Translations under genes and position numbers: made by a program
Notes under the pieces: generated by a model
What the model saw: the letters and a program-made list of their open reading frames with translations, nothing else
Database searches by the model: none
Told to the model about the DNA's origin: nothing
Shown here: positions 4,864-48,445 of the stretch, piece by piece
Numbering within the stretch: the stretch's first letter is position 1
Layout: each line of letters opens with the position of its first letter
Assembly (NCBI RefSeq): GCF_056712565.1
Contig: NZ_CM160072.1
DNA length: 64,000 bases
Direction: 5' to 3' (one strand)

Positions 4864-6144
4864 CTATAAATTGCCGAGGGGGAACAAGGCCGGGAGCTGC
4901 GACAGCAAATACAAAATAAGTCCAATACAACCGCCAACCAGCGTACCGTTGACACGGATAAACTGGAGATCTTTGCCGATATTTAACTCGATTTGCCGCG
5001 ACATATCCCGTGCGTCCCAGCTTTTTACCGTGTCGCTGATATGGCGAGTCAGGAATGCGGAAAACTCAGGCGCAATGCGGTGTGCGGCTTGTTCCAGATG
5101 ACCATTTAACGACGCCCGCAAGGCATCATCGGCAATTAACGTTTCGCCAAACCATTGACCCGCCCGCGCGATACGTTCTTTCACACGAGAATCTTCACTG
5201 TTGATATCCGCATTCAGCCATTCCCGTAAATCCCCCCACAATTCACTGAGATAGCGGTTAAAAGCTTCATCTTCTTTCAGATAGCTTTTTACGGCATCGG
5301 CTCGCGCTGCCATTTCCGGATCGTTTTTCAGCTTGTCGATCAGGGCAAAAGTGGCGCGATCAAACGCATGGCGGATCTGATGCGCACGATCGCGGCTGAT
5401 ATCATCAAGCAAAGAATTCACCGCGTCAGAAACCAACTCCGCGCTATGTTCGCCCAGCCATTCAGTGGGCAAAATTTTGGCTTTCAGTGGATGCTCGCTC
5501 TCCAGCCAGCGAACAATTTGCTGGGCGATAAACTTGCGCGATTTATCGCGCTGGAGAAGGGCGATCAACTGTGCGATCAGCGTATCGAGCAGCACCTGAT
5601 GACGATCGTTTCTGGTCATGCTCTCCAGAATCAGTGCGCTGGTGCCGGAAAGATCGACCTTATCGATCGCCCGGTGGACCGCGCGCTTAAGCAGGCGCTG
5701 AATACGCGCATCATCGGTCAGTTCGAGAAAACCGCTCATGATCTGTAACAGATGCTGACCAACGCGGCGGGCGTTCTCCGGCTGACTAAACCAGTTGCCA
5801 ATCAACAACGCCGGTTCGTGACGTCGAATCAATGCCACCAGCGATTGGGTATCGAGAAATTTTTCCTGCACGAACTGGCCGAGATTTTCGCCAATCCGGT
5901 CTTTATTACGCGGGATAATCGCCGTATGACGAGAAATGATCGGAATCGGCACGCGGCGAAACAGCGCCACCACCGCAAACCAGTCCGCCAGCGCGCCGAC
6001 CATCGCCGCTTCAGCAATCGCCTTCACACCGCTCACCCAAAAATTGGGCGGCAAAAACAGCGTAACGACAAAGGTAGCAGCGGCGATAAGCAGTAAAGAG
6101 AGAGCCAACATTTTGGCGCGTCTGAGTTCAATGAGTTTATTCAT
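4864..6144 (-). CDS. yjiN: DUF445 inner-membrane protein YjiN
   Basis: ORF 4864..6180; start set at [11 protein letters not shown] (426 aa); N-terminal transmembrane segment. Confidence 0.85.
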
Positions 6145-6328
6145 ATCGTAAGAATAGAGCCTGACGGTAAGAAAACGCAAAAAGCGAGATATCTTCCATA
6201 AAAATGTATCGTTTGCAGAAGAATAAAAATAGCCTGGAAACCGCCTCGGGGAATAGGAAATAGCCAGGTGTGAATGGCTTTGTTAGTCGCTAAAGTTGGG
6301 CCATCTTATCTACAGGTGACGGATCGCC

Positions 6329-7249
6329 ATGACAAACTTTACGACCAGCACGCCGCATGACGCATTATTTAAATCCTTTCTCACACACTCTGACACCGCG
6401 CGGGATTTTATGGAGATCCACTTACCCAAAGATTTACGTGAACTGTGCGATCTCGATAGCTTAAAACTGGAATCCGCCAGCTTTGTCGATGAAAAATTGC
6501 GGGCGCTACATTCCGATATTCTGTGGTCGGTAAAGACCCGTGAAGGCGATGGCTATATTTATGTAGTGATTGAACATCAGAGCCGTGAGGATATTCATAT
6601 GGCCTTTCGTCTGATGCGATATTCCATGGCGGTGATGCAGCGCCATATCGAACATGATAAACGCCGGCAGCTACCACTGGTCATCCCGATGCTGTTTTAT
6701 CACGGTAGCCGTAGCCCTTATCCTTGGTCTTTGTGCTGGCTGGACGAATTTGCCGACCCAACTACCGCACGGAAGCTTTATACCGCCGCGTTCCCGCTGG
6801 TGGATATCACTGTCGTGCCAGACGACGAGATTGTGCAGCATCGCAGAGTCGCCCTGTTGGAGTTGATCCAAAAGCATATTCGCCAGCGCGATCTGATGGG
6901 GCTTATTGACCAACTGGTAGTATTACTGGTTACAGAGTGTGCTAATGACAGCCAGATAACTGCGCTGTTAAATTACATTTTACTGACTGGTGATGAAGCG
7001 CGTTTTAATGAGTTTATCAGTGAAATTACCCGTCGACTGCCACAACAAAGGGAGCGAATAATGACGATTGCAGAGCGAATTCATAATGATGGATATATAA
7101 AAGGGGAACAGCGCATTCTTCGATTGTTTTTGCAGAATGGGGTAGATCCTGAATGGATACAAAAGATTACCGGACTTTCGGCAGAGCAAATACAGGCATT
7201 AGAGCAGCCCTTGCCTGAGCGTGAGCCTTATTCATGGCTCAAGAGCTAA
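6329..7249 (+). CDS. rpnD: Rpn-family recombination-promoting nuclease (YhgA-like, PD-(D/E)XK transposase-like), apparently intact RpnD homologue
   Basis: 306-aa ORF beginning [20 protein letters not shown], typical Rpn N-terminus. K-12 has this locus split into yjiP/yjiQ as I recall; here it is one uninterrupted frame. Confidence 0.8.
7061..7249 (+). CDS. Candidate internally initiated small protein (RpnS-like) in frame with the rpn C-terminus
   Basis: In-frame ATG at 7061 preceded by a strong Shine-Dalgarno AGGGAG at 7048-7053 inside the rpn ORF; would give a 62-aa C-terminal peptide. Confidence 0.4.
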
Positions 7250-7275
7250 TCAGAGACGGATGACAAACGCAAAGC

Positions 7276-7374
7276 TGCCTGATGCGCTACGCTTATCAGA
7301 CCTACATTATCTCTGCAATCTATTGAATTTGCGCGGTTTGTAGGCCGGATAAGGCGTTCACGCCGCATCCGGCA
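7276..7374. repeat. REP (repetitive extragenic palindrome) elements downstream of rpn
   Basis: GCCTGATGCGCTACGCTTATCAGACCTAC and GTAGGCCGGATAAGGCGTTCACGCCGCATCCGGCA motifs typical of E. coli REP sequences. Confidence 0.7.
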
Positions 7375-7654
7375 TGAACGAAGCACACTTTACGTGGCGA
7401 TGATAGTGACCTTCCTGCACCAACCTTGCCGCCGCCATTTATGTGAACGGTACATTAACGCTGCTGGTGGCAGCAAATGCAGACCCGGTGCGTGTTACAG
7501 CAGGTGAGAGATGAACGGTTAAAGGATATTGGGTTATGCAGGGAGGATGTGGTGTAATGGAGAGAGTCCTTCACGAAACGATGGGATTTATATGTCACCT
7601 CGTCAGATAAGGGGTTATTATTGCGAAATCATCGCTTCACGGAAAGACGTCAGA

Positions 7655-9748
7655 ATGAAAGCTACAGAAGCCCGCCTACTCGATTTTTTAAAACGTTCGC
7701 AGCAGTTCGTTATTACCATTTATCAACGGACTTATTCATGGACAGAACAACAATGTCGGCAACTTTGGGACGACATCATTCGTGCCGGAAAGCGTGACGA
7801 TATATCAGCGCATTTTATCGGTTCGGTTGTTTATATTGAGCAGGGGTTGTATCAGGTTTCTGGTATTTCTCCGTTACTGGTCATTGATGGTCAACAAAGG
7901 CTGACGACCGCAATGTTGCTGATTGAGGCTTTATCGCGTCATCTTGGCGAAGACGAAGTTTTTGATGGCTTTTCAGCAATGAAATTGCGTAATTATTATT
8001 TACTCAATCCTTATGAGTCCGGCGAGAAAGGATTTAAATTACTGCTGACCGAGACTGATAAAGACAGTTTGCTGGCGTTAATAAAACAAAGACCAATGCC
8101 AGAAAACTATTCCCATCGAATAATGGAAAACTTTACTTTCTTTGATGAACAAATTACCAAACTCGGTGATGACTTGATCCCCTTATGTCGTGGGTTAGCA
8201 AAGTTATTAATTGTCGATGTGGCGCTTAATCGTGGTCAGGATAATCCGCAACTGATTTTTGAAAGTATGAACTCCACCGGTAAGGCATTAAGTCAGGCCG
8301 ATCTGGTGCGCAATTTTATTCTGATGGGCCTCGAACCAGAGCATCAAACCCGGTTGTATGAAGATCACTGGCGTCCAATGGAAGTCGCGTTTGGTCAGCA
8401 AGGTTACAGCGAATATTTTGACAGTTTTATGCGTCATTATCTGACGGTAAAAACGGGGGAGATCCCTCGGACAGATGAAGTCTATGAGGCATTTAAACTC
8501 CATGCCCGCAGCCAGAGTGTTGCTGAAAAAGGCGTAGATCGGCTGGTTGAAGATATTCACATCTACGCGGAGTATTACTGTGCAATGGCATTGGGAAAAG
8601 AAAGTGACAAATCGCTTGCTACGGCTTTTCAGGATTTGCGCGAGTTAAAGGTCGATGTGGCGTATCCTTTCTTACTGGCGCTTTATCATGACTATAAAAA
8701 TGGCGTTTTGTCTCACGAAGATTTCCTGAGCATAATTCGTTTAATTGAATCTTATGTTTTCCGCCGTGCAGTATGTGCGATTCCGACAAATTCTCTTAAC
8801 AAGACGTTTGCTACTTTTTATAAGGTCATTAATAAAGAAAAATATCTGGAAAGTATTCAGGTACATTTTCTGAATCTGCCTTCATATCGTCGTTTCCCCA
8901 ACGATGATGAATTTAAACGGGAATTAAAAGTTCGTGATCTCTATAATTTCCGTAGTCGCAGCTACTGGTTACGACGACTGGAAAACGATAAACGCAGAGA
9001 GCGCGTGGAAGAGTTTACGATTGAGCATATTATGCCGCAGAACGAAAATTTGTCGGCTAAATGGCGTGAAGAGCTGGGAAGTGACTGGCAACGCATTCAT
9101 AAAGAACTGTTGCATACGTTGGGGAATCTCACATTAACGCGCTATAACTCCCGCTACAGTGACAGACCTTTCGCGGAAAAACGCGATATTGAAGACGGCT
9201 TTAAACATAGCCCGCTCTATTTGAATATCGGTCTTGGACAGTGCGAAAAATGGGATGAAGCAGCCATTCGCGCCCGTGCAGATCGTCTGGCCGATCTCGC
9301 GGTTCAGGTCTGGCAAGCGCCTGCTCTTCCTGAAGAGGTTTTAGCTGTTTATCGGGCGCAGCCGGAGAACAAAACCAGTTACAGCCTGAGTGATTATCCT
9401 TTTCTTGCTGATGGTTCGCATAGCCGGGTGTTATTTGATCATCTTCGCGATGAAGTTATGCGCCTGGACGCAGGGATCACGCAGGAAGTTTTAAAGCTCT
9501 ATATTGCGTTTAAAGCTGAAACGAATTTTGTTGATGTTGTACCGCAAAAAAGCCGACTGCGGTTGTCGCTTAATATGCAGTTTCATGAACTGGTCGATCC
9601 GAAAGGTATTGCCAAAGATGTGACAAATGTTGGGCGATGGGGCAATGGTGATGTGGAAATTGGTTTCAGTGACCTCGCACAACTTCCTTACATTATGGGA
9701 TTAATTCGTCAGGCATTTGAAAAACAGATGGAGAGCGCGTTGGTATAA
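7655..9748 (+). CDS. DUF262 (ParB/Srx-like, DGQQR motif) plus DUF1524 (His-Me finger, HNH-like) fusion protein; putative GmrSD-family type IV modification-dependent restriction endonuclease
   Basis: ORF 7529..9748 (739 aa); start proposed at ATG 7655 (MKATEARLLDFLKRSQQFVITIYQRTYSW, ~697 aa). N-terminal motifs IYQRTYSW and VIDGQQRLTT; C-terminal motif EHIMPQNE...HTLGNLTLTRYN; a further ~100-aa C-terminal extension. Lies between rpn and symE-hsdSMR-mrr. Confidence 0.7.
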   Translation: MKATEARLLDFLKRSQQFVITIYQRTYSWTEQQCRQLWDDIIRAGKRDDISAHFIGSVVYIEQGLYQVSGISPLLVIDGQQRLTTAMLLIEALSRHLGEDEVFDGFSAMKLRNYYLLNPYESGEKGFKLLLTETDKDSLLALIKQRPMPENYSHRIMENFTFFDEQITKLGDDLIPLCRGLAKLLIVDVALNRGQDNPQLIFESMNSTGKALSQADLVRNFILMGLEPEHQTRLYEDHWRPMEVAFGQQGYSEYFDSFMRHYLTVKTGEIPRTDEVYEAFKLHARSQSVAEKGVDRLVEDIHIYAEYYCAMALGKESDKSLATAFQDLRELKVDVAYPFLLALYHDYKNGVLSHEDFLSIIRLIESYVFRRAVCAIPTNSLNKTFATFYKVINKEKYLESIQVHFLNLPSYRRFPNDDEFKRELKVRDLYNFRSRSYWLRRLENDKRRERVEEFTIEHIMPQNENLSAKWREELGSDWQRIHKELLHTLGNLTLTRYNSRYSDRPFAEKRDIEDGFKHSPLYLNIGLGQCEKWDEAAIRARADRLADLAVQVWQAPALPEEVLAVYRAQPENKTSYSLSDYPFLADGSHSRVLFDHLRDEVMRLDAGITQEVLKLYIAFKAETNFVDVVPQKSRLRLSLNMQFHELVDPKGIAKDVTNVGRWGNGDVEIGFSDLAQLPYIMGLIRQAFEKQMESALV

Positions 9749-9762
9749 CGTGGCGAATAATA

Positions 9763-9786
9763 CCCGGTAGCACTGGCGCTACCGGG
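9763..9786. terminator. Hairpin between the convergent GmrSD-like gene and symE (possible bidirectional terminator)
   Basis: Inverted repeat CCCGGTAGC / GCTACCGGG with a 6-nt loop; no clear U-tract, so weak. Confidence 0.35.
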
Positions 9787-9794
9787 TCAATGTA

Positions 9795-10136
9795 TCAGGC
9801 GACTTTCTGTTTACCCGCAATCACCCCAATAAACTCCTGCACCTGCCTTTGTTTACGCGCCGACAGCTTGCACACCTGGCGAAGCGACTGCATCAGTTCG
9901 CTCTCTTCGGCGGCGGGGGGTTGGGCGGTGAGGACAATACAGCCTTCCATCACTTTGACATCTATCGCCGTGCCAGTGGCAAAACCGGCGGCTTCCAGCC
10001 ACTGACCTTTCAGGGTGATGGCGGGAATACGGCTGTAATCCGGGTAGCGACTCGCATAACTCACGGTTAATTGACGGTTATTTGCCGGGGAGACTTCTGC
10101 TTCGAACGGTTGTGCAATAGAATGCGTGTCAGTCAT
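9795..10136 (-). CDS. symE: SOS-induced toxin-like protein SymE (AbrB/SpoVT fold)
   Basis: ORF 9795..10193; start set at [15 protein letters not shown] (113 aa) matching K-12 SymE; LexA-box-like site upstream. Confidence 0.88.
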
Positions 10137-10207
10137 GATTACTATTCTCCATAAATAGTGATTGTGATGAGCGGTGCGGGTGTGTTGGCGCACATCCGCA
10201 TCGCGCT
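10131..10207 (+). ncRNA. symR: SymR antisense sRNA (approximate bounds) overlapping the symE start and 5-prime UTR
   Basis: Placed by established knowledge of the symE/SymR type I-like pair; coordinates approximate, not derived from a promoter or terminator read. Confidence 0.4.
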
Positions 10208-10213
10208 AAATAC

Positions 10214-10229
10214 CTGGATATATCATCAG
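10214..10229. promoter_or_regulatory. LexA box-like site upstream of symE
   Basis: CTGATGATATATCCAG on the symE strand fits CTG-N10-CAG, 12 of 16 matches to CTGTATATATATACAG. Confidence 0.5.
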
Positions 10230-10364
10230 TAAATACAGGGAAAGTCCAGCTAAAAATAGAATAAAATGGGAAGTTTCTGGAACGATTTAAATATATTTGT
10301 GTGAGTTATGATTGGCGTAAAAATAATAAATAGCGCACCAGAAAGGTGCGCCAGAAAATAATGA

Positions 10365-11732
10365 TCAGGACTTTTTACGCGAGGCTTTTTTACCCCCGCT
10401 GGCTGCGCGTTCAGCTTTGATTTTCTCCAGCAACGCGGCGGCGCTGTTTTCACCGCTGATTAATTCCGGGTTTTCGGCCCGCCACTGGGCGGTGAGTTCA
10501 CCACGGAACGCTTTTGCCAGGATGGATTGCGTCAGATTGTTGACGCGGGCTAAGGCGTTGTTGACCTGTTTTTCTATTGTGTCGGCGTAGGCGAAGAGTT
10601 GCTCGACGCGGCGAACGATTTCAGCTTGTTCGGGAAGGGGGGGAACAGTTATTGGGTATGCAATTAATTTCTGTGCATTAATATTTGATTGACTGACCCC
10701 ATCAGATTTAACTGAATAGCAATATTGTCTCCCCAAAATGCTATTTAAATGGTAGTTAAGATAGTCAGGGTTTAAATCAGGTAAACATTGAACCCTAATC
10801 AAATAACCTGCATAAATAGCTGGTTGCTCTGATTTATATATGGCTGTTTTCCCGACAAGTTCAGGACTATTTGTACGATTGAATAATACATCATTGTACT
10901 CAAGTTTATACTTTTCAATTTCTATGGTATCTGACGTATAGACTAGATCCGTCCAGTCCAACTTTCCTCCCTGAAGATTGCCCATTCTTAATACAGGAAT
11001 GAGTCCTTCTTTATTAGACTTAGATGACGTTCCGTAACTTGGTTTTTTTATAAACTCCCCAAGTTTGCCTTCTCTCCACCCAGACAGGCTTGAATTATCT
11101 CTCCAGTCTTCAGTTAGTTTTCCTCTCACCGCTGCACCCAGAACCGCCTGACGAAAACGTTTCAGGATTTGTGGGATTTGCTCAAGACGTGCTTTGGTGC
11201 TGTCTACCTGTGCCAGCAGCGTATCGAGTTTTTCAGCGATGATTTTTTGTTCGGCAAACGGTACAAGAACAAATGGTAATGTTTTCGCAGAACTACCAGA
11301 AATTTCTTTAAAAGTTGTTCCTGTGCCCATTTCCTCTGCAATATGTCTGATGTTGCGGAGAAAGTAATATGCATAATCAGGAAAAATGTCTGAAGGAAAA
11401 GCAAAACTTTTGAAACCCTGGTTAGTCGCAATCTCATTTGCAGCAATAGCAACATATCCAATCGGTGCCCGGCTACTAAAAAGTATAGTGCCTTTGGGCA
11501 TTAGTTTTGCTGAACAAGAGGAATAGCCTAGTGTAGTTAAATCTCTGGCACCATGTGAGATATATTTCTCTTTATAACCGCTCAAATCGGCAGGCGTAAG
11601 CCAGGCGACTCCCTCACCCGAAGGTGCAAAATTTTCAGCGACTCCCGATTTTGGTGTCCCACCAGAGATGACATCAGCAATGTCGCCTATTTCAATCTGT
11701 TCCCACCCCTCCGGCAATTTCCCAGCACTCAT
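10365..11732 (-). CDS. hsdS: Type I restriction-modification specificity subunit HsdS (type IA framework, non-EcoKI target-recognition domains)
   Basis: 455-aa ORF; N-terminal MSAGKLPEGW, central PFAEQKIIAEKLDTLLAQVDSTKAR...ILKRFRQAVLG and C-terminal PPLPEQAEIVRRVEQLFAYADTIEKQVNN...KAFRGELTAQWRAENP framework segments conserved, variable blocks between; 4-nt overlap with the hsdM stop. Confidence 0.9.
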   Translation of the reverse strand: MSAGKLPEGWEQIEIGDIADVISGGTPKSGVAENFAPSGEGVAWLTPADLSGYKEKYISHGARDLTTLGYSSCSAKLMPKGTILFSSRAPIGYVAIAANEIATNQGFKSFAFPSDIFPDYAYYFLRNIRHIAEEMGTGTTFKEISGSSAKTLPFVLVPFAEQKIIAEKLDTLLAQVDSTKARLEQIPQILKRFRQAVLGAAVRGKLTEDWRDNSSLSGWREGKLGEFIKKPSYGTSSKSNKEGLIPVLRMGNLQGGKLDWTDLVYTSDTIEIEKYKLEYNDVLFNRTNSPELVGKTAIYKSEQPAIYAGYLIRVQCLPDLNPDYLNYHLNSILGRQYCYSVKSDGVSQSNINAQKLIAYPITVPPLPEQAEIVRRVEQLFAYADTIEKQVNNALARVNNLTQSILAKAFRGELTAQWRAENPELISGENSAAALLEKIKAERAASGGKKASRKKS

Positions 11733-18179: not shown

Positions 18180-19136
18180 TTACTTCCTCAACCCCGCAAA
18201 CGCCGCCCGAATCTCATCCTCCGGCAGCTGAATCCCGATAAACACCATCGTGCTATGCGGTTTTTCATCGCCCCACGGCCTGTCCCAGTCGGCGCTGTAG
18301 AGGCGCTGGACGCCCTGGAACAGCAGGCGGTTAGGTTCGCCGTCAATCCACAGCATCCCTTTGTAACGCAGCAGTTTATCTGCCGATTCCAGCAGCAGGT
18401 TTTCCATCACGCGGGAAACTTCGCTGATATCTACCGGGTAATCCAGTTCCACCACAATCGACGAAATATCGTTTTGTTTGTCCGCGATAAAGTGAAAACG
18501 TGGCTTGGTGCTGACGACGTTTTCTTCCAGCATAAAACCGTTGGTGTTGAACAACAGGCCCAGGTCGATGTCGCCGTGGGTGACGGTGTAGACCGGTGCA
18601 CGGGCGTTGATGCGCGCCAGGCGTTCACGCAGTTTTTCTGCTTCGCCTGCGACGTCGGTTTTAGTCAGCAGAATACGGTCGGCGTAGCCAACCTGGGACT
18701 GGGCGATGGTGAACTGGTTCATCTGCTCATCGGCATGTACCGCATCCACCAGCGCAATCACGCCATCCAGCAGGTAACGCTGGCATAAAATCTCATGGGA
18801 GAAAAAGGTCTGAATAATCGGGCCGGGATCGGCCATGCCGGTGCATTCAATGACCAGACGGTCGAACTGAATATTGCCCTTGTCGAGATTATCCAGCAGG
18901 TCGAGTAGGGCGTCTTCCAGCTCGTTGGAGCGCGAACAGCAGATGCAGCCGTTGGTCAGCGTTTTGATCTGCGTGGCGCGGTCGCCAATCAGTTGATCAT
19001 CAACGGAGACTTCGCCGAATTCGTTTTCAATCACGGCAATCTTGTAGCCGTGTTGTTCGTTAAGAATATGGCGCAGCAGGGTGGTTTTTCCTGCGCCTAA
19101 AAAACCGGTGAGTAGGGTAACTGCAATCGGGTTCAT
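18180..19136 (-). CDS. yjiA: CobW/COG0523-family GTPase YjiA
   Basis: ORF 18180..19220; start set at MNPIAVTLLTGFLGAGKTTL (318 aa, P-loop right after the start) so it does not overlap yjiX. Confidence 0.9.
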   Translation of the reverse strand: MNPIAVTLLTGFLGAGKTTLLRHILNEQHGYKIAVIENEFGEVSVDDQLIGDRATQIKTLTNGCICCSRSNELEDALLDLLDNLDKGNIQFDRLVIECTGMADPGPIIQTFFSHEILCQRYLLDGVIALVDAVHADEQMNQFTIAQSQVGYADRILLTKTDVAGEAEKLRERLARINARAPVYTVTHGDIDLGLLFNTNGFMLEENVVSTKPRFHFIADKQNDISSIVVELDYPVDISEVSRVMENLLLESADKLLRYKGMLWIDGEPNRLLFQGVQRLYSADWDRPWGDEKPHSTMVFIGIQLPEDEIRAAFAGLRK

Positions 19137-19146
19137 GCTCTCTCCA

Positions 19147-19350
19147 TTAACAACAGCGCATACCGCCTTTACCATCGCCGCCGTAGCGCGCGTTCTGGCG
19201 TTCGCGGAAGAATTCTTCATAGCTCATGTACGGCTTGTCGGGATGGTTGGTCTTCATATGCTCGACGTAGTTGTCGTAGTCTGGAATGCCAATCAACATC
19301 TTCGCCGCCTGGCCGAGATATTTTTTTGCCTGTCCTAAGTTACCAAACAT
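19147..19350 (-). CDS. yjiX: DUF466 small protein YjiX
   Basis: 67-aa ORF ending in a CC motif, immediately downstream of btsT as in K-12. Confidence 0.88.
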
Positions 19351-31188: not shown

Positions 31189-33480
31189 TTACCCTTCACG
31201 TTCTACCACTTTAATTTCCACCATGCCGATCCCGAGCTTACGCGGCGAGTGCCCGAGGATATTCCCTTCGTTGGTTGAGACAGGTTCCGGTGGCACAATT
31301 ACCAGTGTGTCGGCATCGGTTGGGTTATCGAAATGCAGTGTGGTGGTGGTCACTTCATTGCCCAGCACAAGGGTTTGTTCTTCATTGCCTACGCGTACCG
31401 GAATAGGACGGCTGGCGTTATTGCCGTATGCTTTGGCGGTAATCACCAGGTCAAATTTCTTCGGCAGCGGATGCTTGTACTCGATTTTTACTTCATCGCC
31501 CAGCTGTGCGTTGGACCAGCGGCCCCACGACTCTGGACGAGAAATCCCGCTAAACTGTTTCACCTCTTCTGGCGCACCAGCGACGTTAAAGATGAAACTG
31601 TCGGCTTTGTAGCGAATATCGTTATCAACAATCTTTAGCGTATCGACATTGCCTTTGTAACGCGCCATGTCGATGACCGTATCTTTAAATGCCGTTTTTC
31701 CCTTCCATATTGCTTTGTCAACATGCTGAACAATTTGCTGACCGCCAAGCTGCCCTTGCGAGACACACCAGTCGGTGGAGAGTGCCAGTTCCGGAGCCCA
31801 GAGTTGTGCCATCTTGTAGCAACGGTCAACCCAGACGAAATTGTCGCGTGGAGCGAAATCTGCCAGCTGGAAACGCAGCGGTGCTGAGTATTCGCTTTCC
31901 GGCAGCGGTTCCACGCGTTTGTCTGAAACCCGCAACAGCAGCGGCAAACGGAAATGGCTACCTGAGAAGGCAATCATGTTTTTCTGCTGGTCGATGGTGA
32001 ACTCTTTCATCTCTTTAGGGAATTTCCACAGGCGGATGATATCCGGCTTCCACGCCAATGTTTTCTCTTTGATATTGAGGAAGATTTCCGACATCGACTG
32101 CCCGGATAAACTGCTACGGCCAAGTCCGAGATAGTTATCGCCACCGAGAATGTCCAGCACCGTCGCGCCGTTATCCATCGTATTACGCTTCACTGCCAGC
32201 GTCTCTTGCTGCGGCTTGTCGCCACGGATGACAAAAAACAGGTTATTGCGATCCTGCTTATTAAGGTATTTCCACGCCGTATTGTTCATCGCTAAATGGT
32301 CAGAAGAGACGACGATGACGGTATCTTTAAACCACGGTGACGCTTTGATTTTGTTGATAAACGTCGCAATATTCTCCTGGCTGCAACTTACCGCGCTGAA
32401 TGACTGATTCGGCTTACCGTCAAAATCATATTTTTTGCGGTTACAGGTGCGCGAGATAAAACCATCCGGGTGATGGGTATCGACTGTCAGGGTAAACAGT
32501 GAGAATCGCTGACCTGAGCGGGAAAGCTCTTCAAATTTTTTCCACGCTTCATCGAGAACGGTATCGTCGTAGAATCCCCAGTCGTTGCGATAGTGCGGGT
32601 CGGCCACCACGCTTTTCAGCTCTTCTGAGCCGTATAAGTGGTCGAAGCCGTGCGATTTCAGGAACACATCTTTACCGGCAAAACGCAGATTCGCGCCCTG
32701 CACGAAATAGTTCTGATAACCCGAGTTTTTCATAATATCGCCCAGACAGATGTTCTGCGGGAAGAAGCTGGAAACAGAAGCGGAGGCGTTGCCTTCAAAT
32801 GGGGCAAACAGCGGTATGCCGCACTGAGAAGCCACCATGCCCGCAATCGTGTAATCCGTTCCTGGCAGCTGCTGCGTGTGGCTGAAATCCAGGCCTTCAT
32901 TTTTCAACGCGCCCAGTTCAGGCGTGAGATCCGGGAAAGCCTCGTTATCAAAATAGGTCCGCTCGAGACTTTCGCCGTAGATATAAACCAGGTTGAGTTT
33001 CGGGTCAGGGATAGTTTTCGACGGCTCTTTATAATAAGCCGCAAAGTCCGGGTCGCCGTCGCGTGACTGGGATTTCACCAGTTCCGTTATCTGACGAAAT
33101 GCCGGGCTGGCATCCACTGAACCCAGCGCCAGTAAGAGTGCCAGCAGGCTGTAACCAAAATGGTGCGGATGATGACGACGACGGCGCAGGATCCAGCCCA
33201 GCGCACCGAACACCGCCGCCAGCCCCAGCACAATGCCGATACCAGGCAGGATGTATTTGCTGACGCCAGCACCGGTCAGGCTGTTGGTTAAGGTATAGAG
33301 AACCGCGTCGTTAATACCATCGCCAGTAAAATAGTCGCTGGCAAACAGGGTGATATTTAAAACGACAAATAGCCCCAGTACCGTTAATGTGGCTGCAAAC
33401 CACCAGGTGTTACGTCCCGCTTTCCATGCGTAAATCAGCACAGAGGCGAGAAAAAGGGCGAAAGAGAGTAGTTCTGACAA
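31189..33480 (-). CDS. opgB: Phosphoglycerol transferase I (osmoregulated periplasmic glucan biosynthesis)
   Basis: 763-aa ORF with N-terminal TM helices and sulfatase-like domain; same length as K-12 OpgB/MdoB. Confidence 0.93.
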
Positions 33481-40119: not shown

Positions 40120-40206
40120 TGGTGCGAGGGGGGGGACTTGAACCCCCACGTCCGTAAGGACACTAACACCTGAAGCTAGCGCGTCTACCAATTCCGCCAC
40201 CTTCGC
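40120..40206 (-). tRNA. leuV: tRNA-Leu (CAG anticodon), 87 nt with encoded CCA
   Basis: Reverse complement reads GCGAAGGTGGCGGAATTGGTAGACGCGCTAGCTTCAGGTGTTAGTGTCCTTACGGACGTGGGGGTTCAAGTCCCCCCCCTCGCACCA; type II tRNA with long variable arm. Confidence 0.95.
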
Positions 40207-40240
40207 ACAGTCATCTTACTTTTTTTGATATCGCCTCGTT

Positions 40241-40327
40241 TGGTGCGAGGGGGGGGACTTGAACCCCCACGTCCGTAAGAACACTAACACCTGAAGCTAG
40301 CGCGTCTACCAATTCCGCCACCTTCGC
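40241..40327 (-). tRNA. leuP: tRNA-Leu (CAG), variant copy with one substitution in the variable arm
   Basis: Identical to the flanking copies except GTGTTCTTACGGAC instead of GTGTCCTTACGGAC (tRNA sense). Confidence 0.93.
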
Positions 40328-40355
40328 CCAGTGCGAGCAATATCAACGTGGTTTT

Positions 40356-40442
40356 TGGTGCGAGGGGGGGGACTTGAACCCCCACGTCCGTAAGGACACT
40401 AACACCTGAAGCTAGCGCGTCTACCAATTCCGCCACCTTCGC
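40356..40442 (-). tRNA. leuQ: tRNA-Leu (CAG)
   Basis: Third tandem copy, identical to the copy at 40120-40206. Confidence 0.95.
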
Positions 40443-47457: not shown

Positions 47458-48233
47458 TTTGCCGTTTTATCGACACCCACTGCCATTTTGATTTCCCGCC
47501 GTTTAGTGGCGATGAAGAGGCCAGCCTGCAACGCGCGGCACAAGCGGGCGTAGGCAAGATCATTGTTCCGGCGACAGAGGCGGAAAATTTTGCCCGCGTG
47601 CAGGCGTTAGCGGAAAAATATCAACCGCTGTATGCCGCATTGGGCTTACATCCTGGTATGTTGGAAAAACATAGCGATGTGTCTCTTGATCAGCTACAGC
47701 AGGCGCTGGAAAGGCATCCGGCGAAGGTGGTGGCGGTGGGGGAGATCGGTCTGGATCTCTTTGGCGACGATCCGCAATTTGAGAGGCAGCAGTGGTTACT
47801 CGACGAACAACTGAAACTGGCGAAACGCTACGATCTGCCGGTGATCCTGCATTCACGACGCACGCACGACAAACTGGCGATGCATCTTAAACGCCACGAT
47901 TTACCGTGCACTGGCGTGGTTCATGGTTTTTCCGGCAGCCTGCAACAGGCCGAACGGTTTGTGCAACTGGGCTACAAAATTGGCGTAGGCGGGACTATCA
48001 CCTATCCACGCGCCAGTAAAACCCGCGATGTCATCGCAAAATTACCGCTGGCATCGTTGTTGCTGGAAACCGACGCACCAGATATGCCGCTCAATGGTTT
48101 TCAGGGGCAGCCTAATCGCCCTGAACAGGCCGCCCGTGTGTTTGCCGTGCTTTGCGAGTTACGACCGGAACCGGCGGATGAGATTGCCGAAGTGTTGCTT
48201 AATAACACCTATACGTTGTTTAACGTGCCGTAG
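47454..48233 (+). CDS. yjjV: TatD-family metal-dependent DNase/hydrolase YjjV
   Basis: 259-aa ORF with HxH metal-binding motif near the N-terminus (DTHCHFDF); 4-nt overlap with yjjU. Confidence 0.9.
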   Translation: MICRFIDTHCHFDFPPFSGDEEASLQRAAQAGVGKIIVPATEAENFARVQALAEKYQPLYAALGLHPGMLEKHSDVSLDQLQQALERHPAKVVAVGEIGLDLFGDDPQFERQQWLLDEQLKLAKRYDLPVILHSRRTHDKLAMHLKRHDLPCTGVVHGFSGSLQQAERFVQLGYKIGVGGTITYPRASKTRDVIAKLPLASLLLETDAPDMPLNGFQGQPNRPEQAARVFAVLCELRPEPADEIAEVLLNNTYTLFNVP

Positions 48234-48445
48234 GCCGGACAAGGCGTTTACGCCGCATCCGGCCGTTGGCGCACAATGCCTGATGCGACGCTGACGCGTC
48301 TTATCATGCCTACAAGTCTGTGCCGAACCGTAGGCCGGATAAGGCGTTCACGCCGCATCCGGCAGCTGGCGCACAATGCCTGATGCGACGCTTGACGCGT
48401 CTTATCATGCCTACAGGTCTGTGCCGATCCGTAGGCCACATCCGG
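48234..48445. repeat. BIME/REP cluster with a tandemly duplicated ~100-bp unit
   Basis: Two near-identical units, each TAGGCCGGA(C/T)AAGGCGTT(T/C)ACGCCGCATCCGGC...GCGCACAATGCCTGATGCGACGCT...CTTATCATGCCTACA, then a third REP-like palindrome. Confidence 0.75.

Follow-up and report, generated by a model that had tools for sequence, protein, structure and literature searches.

A probable symE-SymR toxin-antitoxin module with a predicted LexA operator beside the type I restriction genes of an Escherichia coli immigration control region

The symE-SymR locus

The 64,000-nucleotide (nt) stretch of contig NZ_CM160072.1 (RefSeq assembly GCF_056712565.1) analyzed here, henceforth the window, carries the toxin gene symE on its minus strand (9795..10136; ATG start, 113 codons and a stop), the 77-nt cis-antisense RNA SymR on its plus strand (10131..10207), and a predicted LexA operator upstream of the symE start. 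Judged from these features, the locus is very probably an orthologue of the symE-SymR type I toxin-antitoxin module of Escherichia coli K-12, complete with its LexA operator and situated where it normally sits, within the immigration control region (ICR). We saw no sequence evidence against this assignment.

The symE coding sequence (CDS) was delineated by translation of its open reading frame (ORF), by Pfam, and by identity to K-12. The product matches PF08845 (SymE_toxin; E 1.6e-21, 76.6 bits, cutoff 29), a family of ~110–114 aa proteins to which it thus belongs, and 107/113 of its residues (95%) are those of K-12 SymE; a genome that is 100% identical across window positions 9700-10400 annotates the CDS as symE. 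Pfam searches with E up to 10 gave only noise besides SymE_toxin, a PDB sequence search with the same limit gave zero matches, and none of the PADLOC models matches SymE. The MazE/AbrB-like fold of the protein is an assignment from the literature (PMC1891008, PMC11894785). When the SymE alignment was compared by hhalign with E. coli MazE (an approximate query sequence), the expected RIPA...IVL segment was aligned, but not significantly (E 0.029, probability 1.7%). An AlphaFold2 monomer built from a 21-sequence alignment was too poor for a fold search (mean predicted local distance difference test score 57, falling below 50 for residues 1-41; predicted template modeling score 0.28); an obligatorily intertwined dimer such as the AbrB fold is badly served by a monomer model. 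RNA cleavage was proposed in 2007 as the activity of SymE, with the recycling of damaged RNA as its role (Kawano et al. 2007, PMC1891008), and the RefSeq name 'endoribonuclease SymE' derives from that proposal. In the account that a 2024 review gives of Thompson et al. 2022, SymE is without RNase activity and, upon overexpression, binds DNA non-specifically and condenses the nucleoid (PMC11894785).

In an Rfam scan of the whole window, SymR was recovered as a full-length match to RF01809 that spans model positions 1-77/77 and scores 95.8 bits, the gathering score being 61 (E 1.6e-17). It is antisense to the symE start codon, to the GGAG Shine-Dalgarno sequence (10147..10150, minus strand, 10 nt before the ATG), and to 71 nt of the leader, that is, most of it. 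Its 5' end is at 10131 and the symE ATG at 10136-10134; therefore, SymR begins 3 nt into the ORF, past the ATG. The minimum free energy (MFE) structure has two hairpins (-41.1 kcal/mol, z -5.96 versus shuffles) and equals the family consensus. Across 11 loci, which represent four contexts in E. coli and, by attribution, six other genera (here and below, the organism names of loci outside E. coli are labels of SymE protein clusters, not of individual contigs), the two-hairpin consensus comprises 28 pairs, and compensatory double changes occur in 8 of these. All or most of the loci keep several G.U pairs, and because their equivalents on the symE strand would be A.C mismatches, the conserved structure is that of SymR and not that of the mRNA leader. 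The loop of hairpin 1 in the MFE structure (10147-10153, CUCCAUA) contains CUCC, the complement of the Shine-Dalgarno sequence, and may thereby display an anti-Shine-Dalgarno element. Full-length Rfam matches to SymR, scoring 83–95 bits, are present in every examined symE locus outside E. coli.

The promoter of SymR appears to be embedded in the symE ORF. The corresponding region of the window (10072-10136) shows 100% identity with K-12, in which SymR is lost upon -10 mutations embedded in symE (PMC1891008). The probable -10 hexamer is TAGAAT (10118..10123, plus strand), which lies inside the symE ORF, 7 nt before the SymR 5' end.

A predicted LexA operator and the symE promoter region

The putative operator, CTGATGATATATCCAG (10214..10229, minus strand; the 20-mer TACTGATGATATATCCAGGT spans 10212-10231), is recognized by homology to the K-12 box and by its conservation, and 77 nt separate it from the symE ATG. 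It has the CTG-N10-CAG form with an AT-rich spacer and agrees with the consensus CTGTATATATATACAG at 12/16 positions (14/20 for the 20-mer); of 21 CTG-N10-CAG sites in the window it alone reaches at least 12/16. Dinucleotide-preserving shuffles of the window, used as a chance estimate, held a mean of 0.155 sites of at least 12/16 per 64 kb, with one or more in 13.5% of the shuffles, and because such a site is this frequent, agreement with the consensus says little when taken by itself. The case for this predicted operator is made strong by its position, homology, and conservation. It is 15/16 identical to the validated K-12 yjiW/symE box CTGATGATATATACAG, which appears as the yjiW LexA box in a table of PMC2585105 that cites Fernandez de Henestrosa et al. 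2000, the single change being from ACAG to CCAG. In the upstream alignment of the 11 loci the half-site elements TG and CAGGT are invariant in 11/11 loci (seven genera attributed), while the spacer positions vary; the first C of the box is kept in 9/11, the two Kosakonia-attributed loci having TTG. Invariant half-sites around a free spacer are the signature of a LexA site.

The exact 32-mer around the box (window 10204-10235) is present in 1971/5426 complete E. coli genomes and its K-12 version in 437, and ~460 symE-positive genomes have further box variants (e.g., ATGTCCAG in NC101). The K-12 box, the one studied experimentally, is hence a minority allele, with CCAG ~4.5x commoner among complete E. 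coli genomes. CCAG also occurs in the boxes of dinI, dinB, and ybfE, i.e., in 3/7 LexA boxes tabulated in PMC2585105. In EDL933 an identical 20-mer lies upstream of locus tag EDL933_RS28195, the symE gene of that strain, which is reported to be 2.5-fold up after ciprofloxacin (PMC11125564). The K-12 box has a heterology index of 7.9, and symE expression there is lexA-dependent (PMC11228462). The one-base change from ACAG to CCAG is probably not important.

A preliminary description of the locus, made from the letters alone, had called the gene symE, placed SymR at 10131-10207 on the plus strand, and located a LexA-box-like element with 12/16 matches. The Pfam match and the 107/113 residues shared with K-12 bear out the first of these calls, the Rfam match agrees exactly with the second, and the position and count of the box, 77 nt upstream of the ATG, stand as given. 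A second palindrome with perfect half-sites (CTGT-N8-ACAG; CACTGTTTACCCTGACAGTC) occurs at 32484-32499; it has a GC-rich spacer, matches at 10/16 positions, and falls within the minus-strand ORF 31189-33480 (763 aa), probably opgB. Given its location inside an ORF and its GC-rich spacer, it was set aside as a LexA site and is probably a chance occurrence.

Immediately upstream of the box is a conserved promoter-proximal block, ATTTTTAGCTGGACTTTCCCTGTATTTA (10230..10257, minus strand), in which CTGG and CTTT are invariant in the 11 loci and which is conserved across genera (ATTTTTAGCTGGACTTT...). This block probably represents the -35/upstream promoter region of symE as well as the margin of the conserved module on its upstream side; in the type IA, IB, and ID contexts described below homology begins here. 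The LexA site has been placed over the symE promoter (PMC3874152). Farther upstream, past the hsdS stop, a terminator scan found an intrinsic-terminator-like hairpin (10331..10353, minus strand; -16.6 kcal/mol, z -5.9, with a U-rich tail), because of which symE is best seen as an independent transcription unit. At the other end, a 10-bp inverted repeat (9762..9787) that folds on both strands (-20.2 kcal/mol on the symE strand, -19.6 on the other) sits where symE and a GmrSD-like gene converge, between their stops, and is probably a bidirectional terminator. It is kept with the GmrSD context in O157, with other hairpins instead in the McrBC and yjiS contexts.

Proposed regulation of symE

In K-12, control of symE by LexA, SymR, and Lon has been demonstrated, as has the toxicity of overproduced SymE (PMC1891008), and the mechanism proposed here is carried over from that system by analogy. 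LexA bound to the CTG-N10-CAG box, which would overlap a weak symE promoter, would keep transcription off until DNA damage. A constitutive and stable 77-nt SymR, transcribed from the promoter inside symE and perfectly complementary to the leader, Shine-Dalgarno sequence, and start codon, would block symE translation and lower the levels of its mRNA. Such SymE as is made would be degraded by Lon, and the protein would be toxic when overproduced.

This reading has several limits. A consensus sigma-70 scan of 9700-10400 on both strands returned zero promoters for symE or SymR, and the positions given above for both promoters are accordingly those suggested by the sequence and by comparison with K-12. 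The operator of the window is one step further from the consensus than that of K-12 (12/16 versus 13/16), and K-12 symE itself shows modest induction in some conditions (1.5-fold with AZT; PMC11228462). Finally, the biochemical activity of the toxin is disputed, going by the summary of Thompson et al. 2022 in PMC11894785.

The immigration control region

Gene order marks the surroundings of symE as the E. coli ICR. This cassette-exchange locus is bounded by yjiN and yjiA (PMC12707154), and in the window variable restriction cargo lies between a yjiN-like DUF445 gene (4864-6180) and a yjiA-like CobW GTPase gene (18180-19220), in the order yjiN, an Rpn-family gene, a GmrSD-like ORF, symE, hsdS, hsdM, hsdR (type IA), mrr, and yjiA. 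The gene preceding symE is hsdS (10365..11732, minus strand; Pfam Methylase_S, and so annotated in strain 7/2), the last of the type IA hsdR-hsdM-hsdS array. Strain 7/2 is 99.2% identical to the window over 20.4 kb.

The GmrSD-like type IV restriction gene (7655..9748, plus strand; 697 aa from the ATG; Pfam GmrSD_N, GmrSD_C, and DUF5655) is convergent with symE, with 46 nt between its end and the symE stop. Its product combines DUF262 and DUF1524 with a C-terminal DUF5655, and is matched by the PADLOC models Orf5 (734.9 bits) and mREase_IV. The slot that it occupies holds mcrBC in K-12; these Pfam matches and the comparison with K-12 confirm that, as had been suggested beforehand, McrBC is here replaced by another type IV enzyme. 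The ORF is uninterrupted in the window and in strain 7/2 (locus L001 of our comparison set, 7956-10049). RefSeq splits the region in strain 7/2 into a truncated DUF262 pseudogene and a separate 387-aa CDS, which looks like an annotation artefact; O157 strains have two separate CDSs.

An intact 306-aa Rpn-family gene (YhgA-like, Transposase_31; 6329-7249, plus strand) separates yjiN from the GmrSD-like gene, and its K-12 counterpart, which has an internal stop, bears the annotation of a pseudogene; rpn is counted among the three toxin-antitoxin systems of the ICR (PMC12707154). Elsewhere, the window has two tandem Rfam matches to naRNA4, which is REP-derived, on the plus strand (48233-48411) and three equal-scoring 84-nt tRNA genes, probably leuVPQ, on the minus strand (40123-40442).

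Association of symE with type I restriction genes

DNA of symE is present in 2872/5426 complete E. coli genomes, and the gene occurs directly downstream of, and co-directional with, type I genes of three families. The numbers of these junctions are bounds obtained from BLAST coverage classes with junction-specific queries. The type IA hsdS-symE junction, with hsdS last as in K-12 and the window, was found in 917 genomes; the type ID hsdR-symE junction, with hsdR last in an M-S-R gene order (NC101, EC958), in 969; and the type IB hsdS-symE junction, with hsdS last (O157:H7), in 500 genomes at >=80% coverage, or ~890–980 by an evenly spaced ranking. We take the M-S-R operon of NC101 and EC958 to be the family ID of the review PMC12707154. 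As a firm lower bound, at least 83% of E. coli symE copies directly follow a IA, IB, or ID gene, and the true share is likely to be ~97% or more. The type IA hsdM gene occurs in 927 genomes, 917 of which have its operon joined to symE. The framework gene yjiA is present in 5382 genomes, and all three symE-negative ICRs that were sampled also have no type I genes, their cargo being insertion sequence (IS) elements, penicillin acylase, or brnTA. The other side of symE in E. coli is occupied by McrBC, GmrSD, or yjiS. A match in strain IH5 (L006, NZ_CP168949.1) was ignored as a patchwork in which ~500-bp pieces of unrelated genes, part of symE among them, are strung together; this region of NZ_CP168949.1 looks mis-assembled, and homology counts could be contaminated by it.

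Outside E. coli the same co-directional arrangement recurs, with a spacer of 223–228 nt: type IA genes adjoin symE in loci labeled Serratia, Pantoea, and Kosakonia, and operons in M-S-R order do so in those labeled Salmonella, Citrobacter, and Kluyvera. The other neighbor again varies (YjiV, McrBC-like genes, an efflux operon, a TauD-like gene, and others). A counter-example to the pairing comes from contigs attributed to Kosakonia cowanii, in which an identical 113-aa SymE with SymR and box is found either after hsdRMS or beside Lamassu-like genes without hsd, the latter comprising LmuA and LmuC hits and an SMC_N protein. In the hsd and Lamassu-like versions homology is confined to locus positions 6777-7375, the symE block, and resumes at an integrase.

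The upstream slot of these Kosakonia loci (L011 and L013, 1-6678; L012) holds type IA hsdRMS or else SMC_N, LmuC-like, LmuA-like/metallo-beta-lactamase-fold, and PDC-M36A-like proteins, and the downstream slot McrBC-like genes or a 140-aa ORF, followed by a 203-aa integrase and a fimbrial operon; thus, symE is there a fixed linker between two exchangeable defense slots. Intact YjiV (2106 aa; DEAD, YjiV_N, and MZB domains) and YjiT (1099 aa) adjoin symE in Serratia- and Pantoea-attributed loci (L007; L010, 7373-14339), and an intact DEAD/DEAH helicase adjoins mcrC in E. coli PE15 (L024, 1-3810); K-12 retains only pseudogene fragments of YjiV, YjiT, and the helicase.

The preliminary description had held that symE stays at the hsd junction whatever its other neighbor, and as an observation this is borne out by the contexts in E. 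coli and the other genera. The near one-to-one pairing of symE with ICR type I systems across three families is mentioned but not quantified in the published descriptions consulted, and were it to reflect function rather than linkage, it would offer a testable context for SymE.

Origin of the association

Homology with the window ends either at the symE stop or 20 nt short of it and, on the other side, 30–55 nt upstream of the LexA box; so delimited, the symE-SymR module appears as a discrete conserved block of ~450–470 bp, roughly from 9800/9820 to 10260. Since breakpoints of cassette exchange flank it on both sides, the module is kept by strains that differ in the type IV enzyme to one side of it and in the type I family to the other. 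In the yjiS/M-S-R context (L004 and L005, 7980-8318) the break falls ~20 nt before the symE stop, and SymE is there a 112-aa protein with the C-terminal tail …VISSKTPR rather than …VIAGKQKVA. The E. coli symE beside the M-S-R (ID) operon resembles the E. coli symE beside IA, not the Salmonella symE beside M-S-R; symE sequences track species and not hsd family, which points to cassette exchange around a conserved block.

These patterns bring passive linkage close to an even chance, though somewhat short of it, as the reason for the association: the symE-SymR block would be a homologous segment between two variable slots of a defense island, swaps would resolve at its edges, and purifying selection on an overlapping sense/antisense unit would keep it. 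The breakpoints in E. coli coincide exactly with the edges of the module (query positions 100/120 and 562-587), symE is 94–96% identical across contexts whose flanking genes cannot be aligned, the Kosakonia hsd and Lamassu-like versions share only 6777-7375 before the integrase, and the ICR, from yjiN to yjiA, is a known locus of cassette exchange (PMC12707154). By itself, however, passive linkage leaves unexplained why E. coli ICRs without type I genes rarely, if ever, keep symE. It is compatible with, and not exclusive of, the orthology of the locus to the K-12 module.

A functional or regulatory coupling of symE to the type I hsd genes, for instance in restriction alleviation or in limiting self-restriction damage after SOS, would account for its retention beside them, and we consider such a coupling improbable. 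In its favor are the junctions with IA, ID, and IB operons in 917, 969, and 500 to ~980, respectively, of the 2872 symE genomes, the junction in 917/927 genomes with type IA hsdM, and the want of type I genes in 3/3 sampled symE-negative ICRs although yjiA is in 5382 genomes. The arrangement with its 223–228-nt spacer also recurs in the loci attributed to Salmonella, Citrobacter, Kluyvera, Serratia, Pantoea, and Kosakonia, and an interplay with a translocating restriction enzyme is plausible for the DNA binding and nucleoid condensation ascribed to SymE in the review's account (PMC11894785). Against it, linkage together with gain and loss of whole cassettes in one hypervariable locus can yield the same co-occurrence, symE sequences follow species and not hsd family, symE has a separate operator, with a terminator hairpin ahead of it, and the Kosakonia-attributed contigs carry an identical SymE, SymR, and box with Lamassu-like neighbors and without hsd.

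The earlier proposals that SymE acts in restriction alleviation and that symE has a regulatory link to hsd fared correspondingly poorly. For the first we found no literature support: the described mechanism of alleviation is the degradation of HsdR by ClpXP (PMC12707154), and a literature search on both terms found them in unrelated sections of that review. Other literature with both terms, judged by title and abstract, dealt with prophages of Clostridium and with RalR, another type I toxin that is named after restriction alleviation, and the preliminary description may have conflated SymE with RalR. The second was not borne out in view of the separate operator, the terminator hairpin after hsdS, and the hsd-less Kosakonia-attributed contigs. 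The polar effect on yjiW reported for an hsdSMR deletion in CFT073 (PMC8287963) is a construct artefact and not regulation. The conservation of the junction is real, and stronger than could have been known from the window, but it is not evidence of a regulatory link.

It is likewise improbable that SymE/SymR is a dedicated accessory of chromosomal type I cassettes and not a free-standing toxin-antitoxin pair, and there is little likelihood that the pairing with type I systems reflects function rather than linkage. If the accessory reading were true, self-restriction or phage-induced breaks would trigger SOS, SymE would compact the nucleoid, and this compaction would limit further damage by translocating HsdR or arrest the cell; we found no experiment or paper addressing it.

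Least credible, indeed very improbable, is that the change from ACAG to CCAG has weakened or inactivated the operator, so that symE is no longer SOS-regulated and is checked only by SymR and Lon: the box does match at 12/16 positions against 13/16 in K-12, where the site is already of mid-strength (heterology index 7.9; PMC11228462), but the C allele is that of the E. coli majority (1971 versus 437 genomes), the dinI, dinB, and ybfE boxes have CCAG as well (PMC2585105), and EDL933, with the same 20-mer, shows 2.5-fold induction of symE by ciprofloxacin (PMC11125564).

Comparison with known systems

The probable orthologue of the K-12 symE-SymR module described here is already known, and the ICR variant that holds it has been published. 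A textbook locus has been correctly identified again, in a strain other than K-12, and this adds nothing beyond showing that annotation pipelines and Rfam recognize symE-SymR. K-12 symE (yjiW) and SymR (RyjC) (PMC1891008) share with it the locus, orientation, and lengths (113 aa and 77 nt), the start of SymR 3 nt inside the ORF, the SymR promoter region, the position of the LexA box, and the 228-nt spacer to hsdS. The two differ by 6 amino-acid substitutions in SymE, by one change in the LexA box (ACAG to CCAG), and by 8 substitutions in SymR that leave all predicted pairs intact. They also differ in their 3' neighbor, which is a co-directional mcrB in K-12 and a convergent GmrSD-like gene here, and in the 3' hairpin. 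The symER region has already been aligned from K-12, O157:H7, CFT073, UTI89, Shigella, and Salmonella (Kawano et al. 2007, PMC1891008).

The gene order of the window matches that of the ICR of APEC O1 (He et al. 2015, PMC4437046 Fig. 8), in which a putative transposase (Rpn) and a GmrSD homologue of ~733 aa are followed by an 'endoribonuclease' (symE), hsdS, hsdM, hsdR, mrr, and a GTPase (yjiA). More generally, a GmrSD homologue replaces McrBC in some E. coli, and symE/symR is listed among the ICR toxin-antitoxin systems (EcoSal Plus 2025, PMC12707154 Fig. 10); nothing substantive sets the window apart from these published GmrSD-for-McrBC variants. Beyond the ICR, the module resembles tisB/istR-1, in which a LexA-repressed toxin gene is likewise coupled to a constitutive small antisense RNA that blocks its translation (PMC1891008, PMC3874152). 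However, the toxin TisB is a small membrane peptide, and IstR-1 comes from a divergent gene without full overlap, whereas SymE is a soluble 113-aa MazE/AbrB-like protein and SymR a true cis-antisense RNA.

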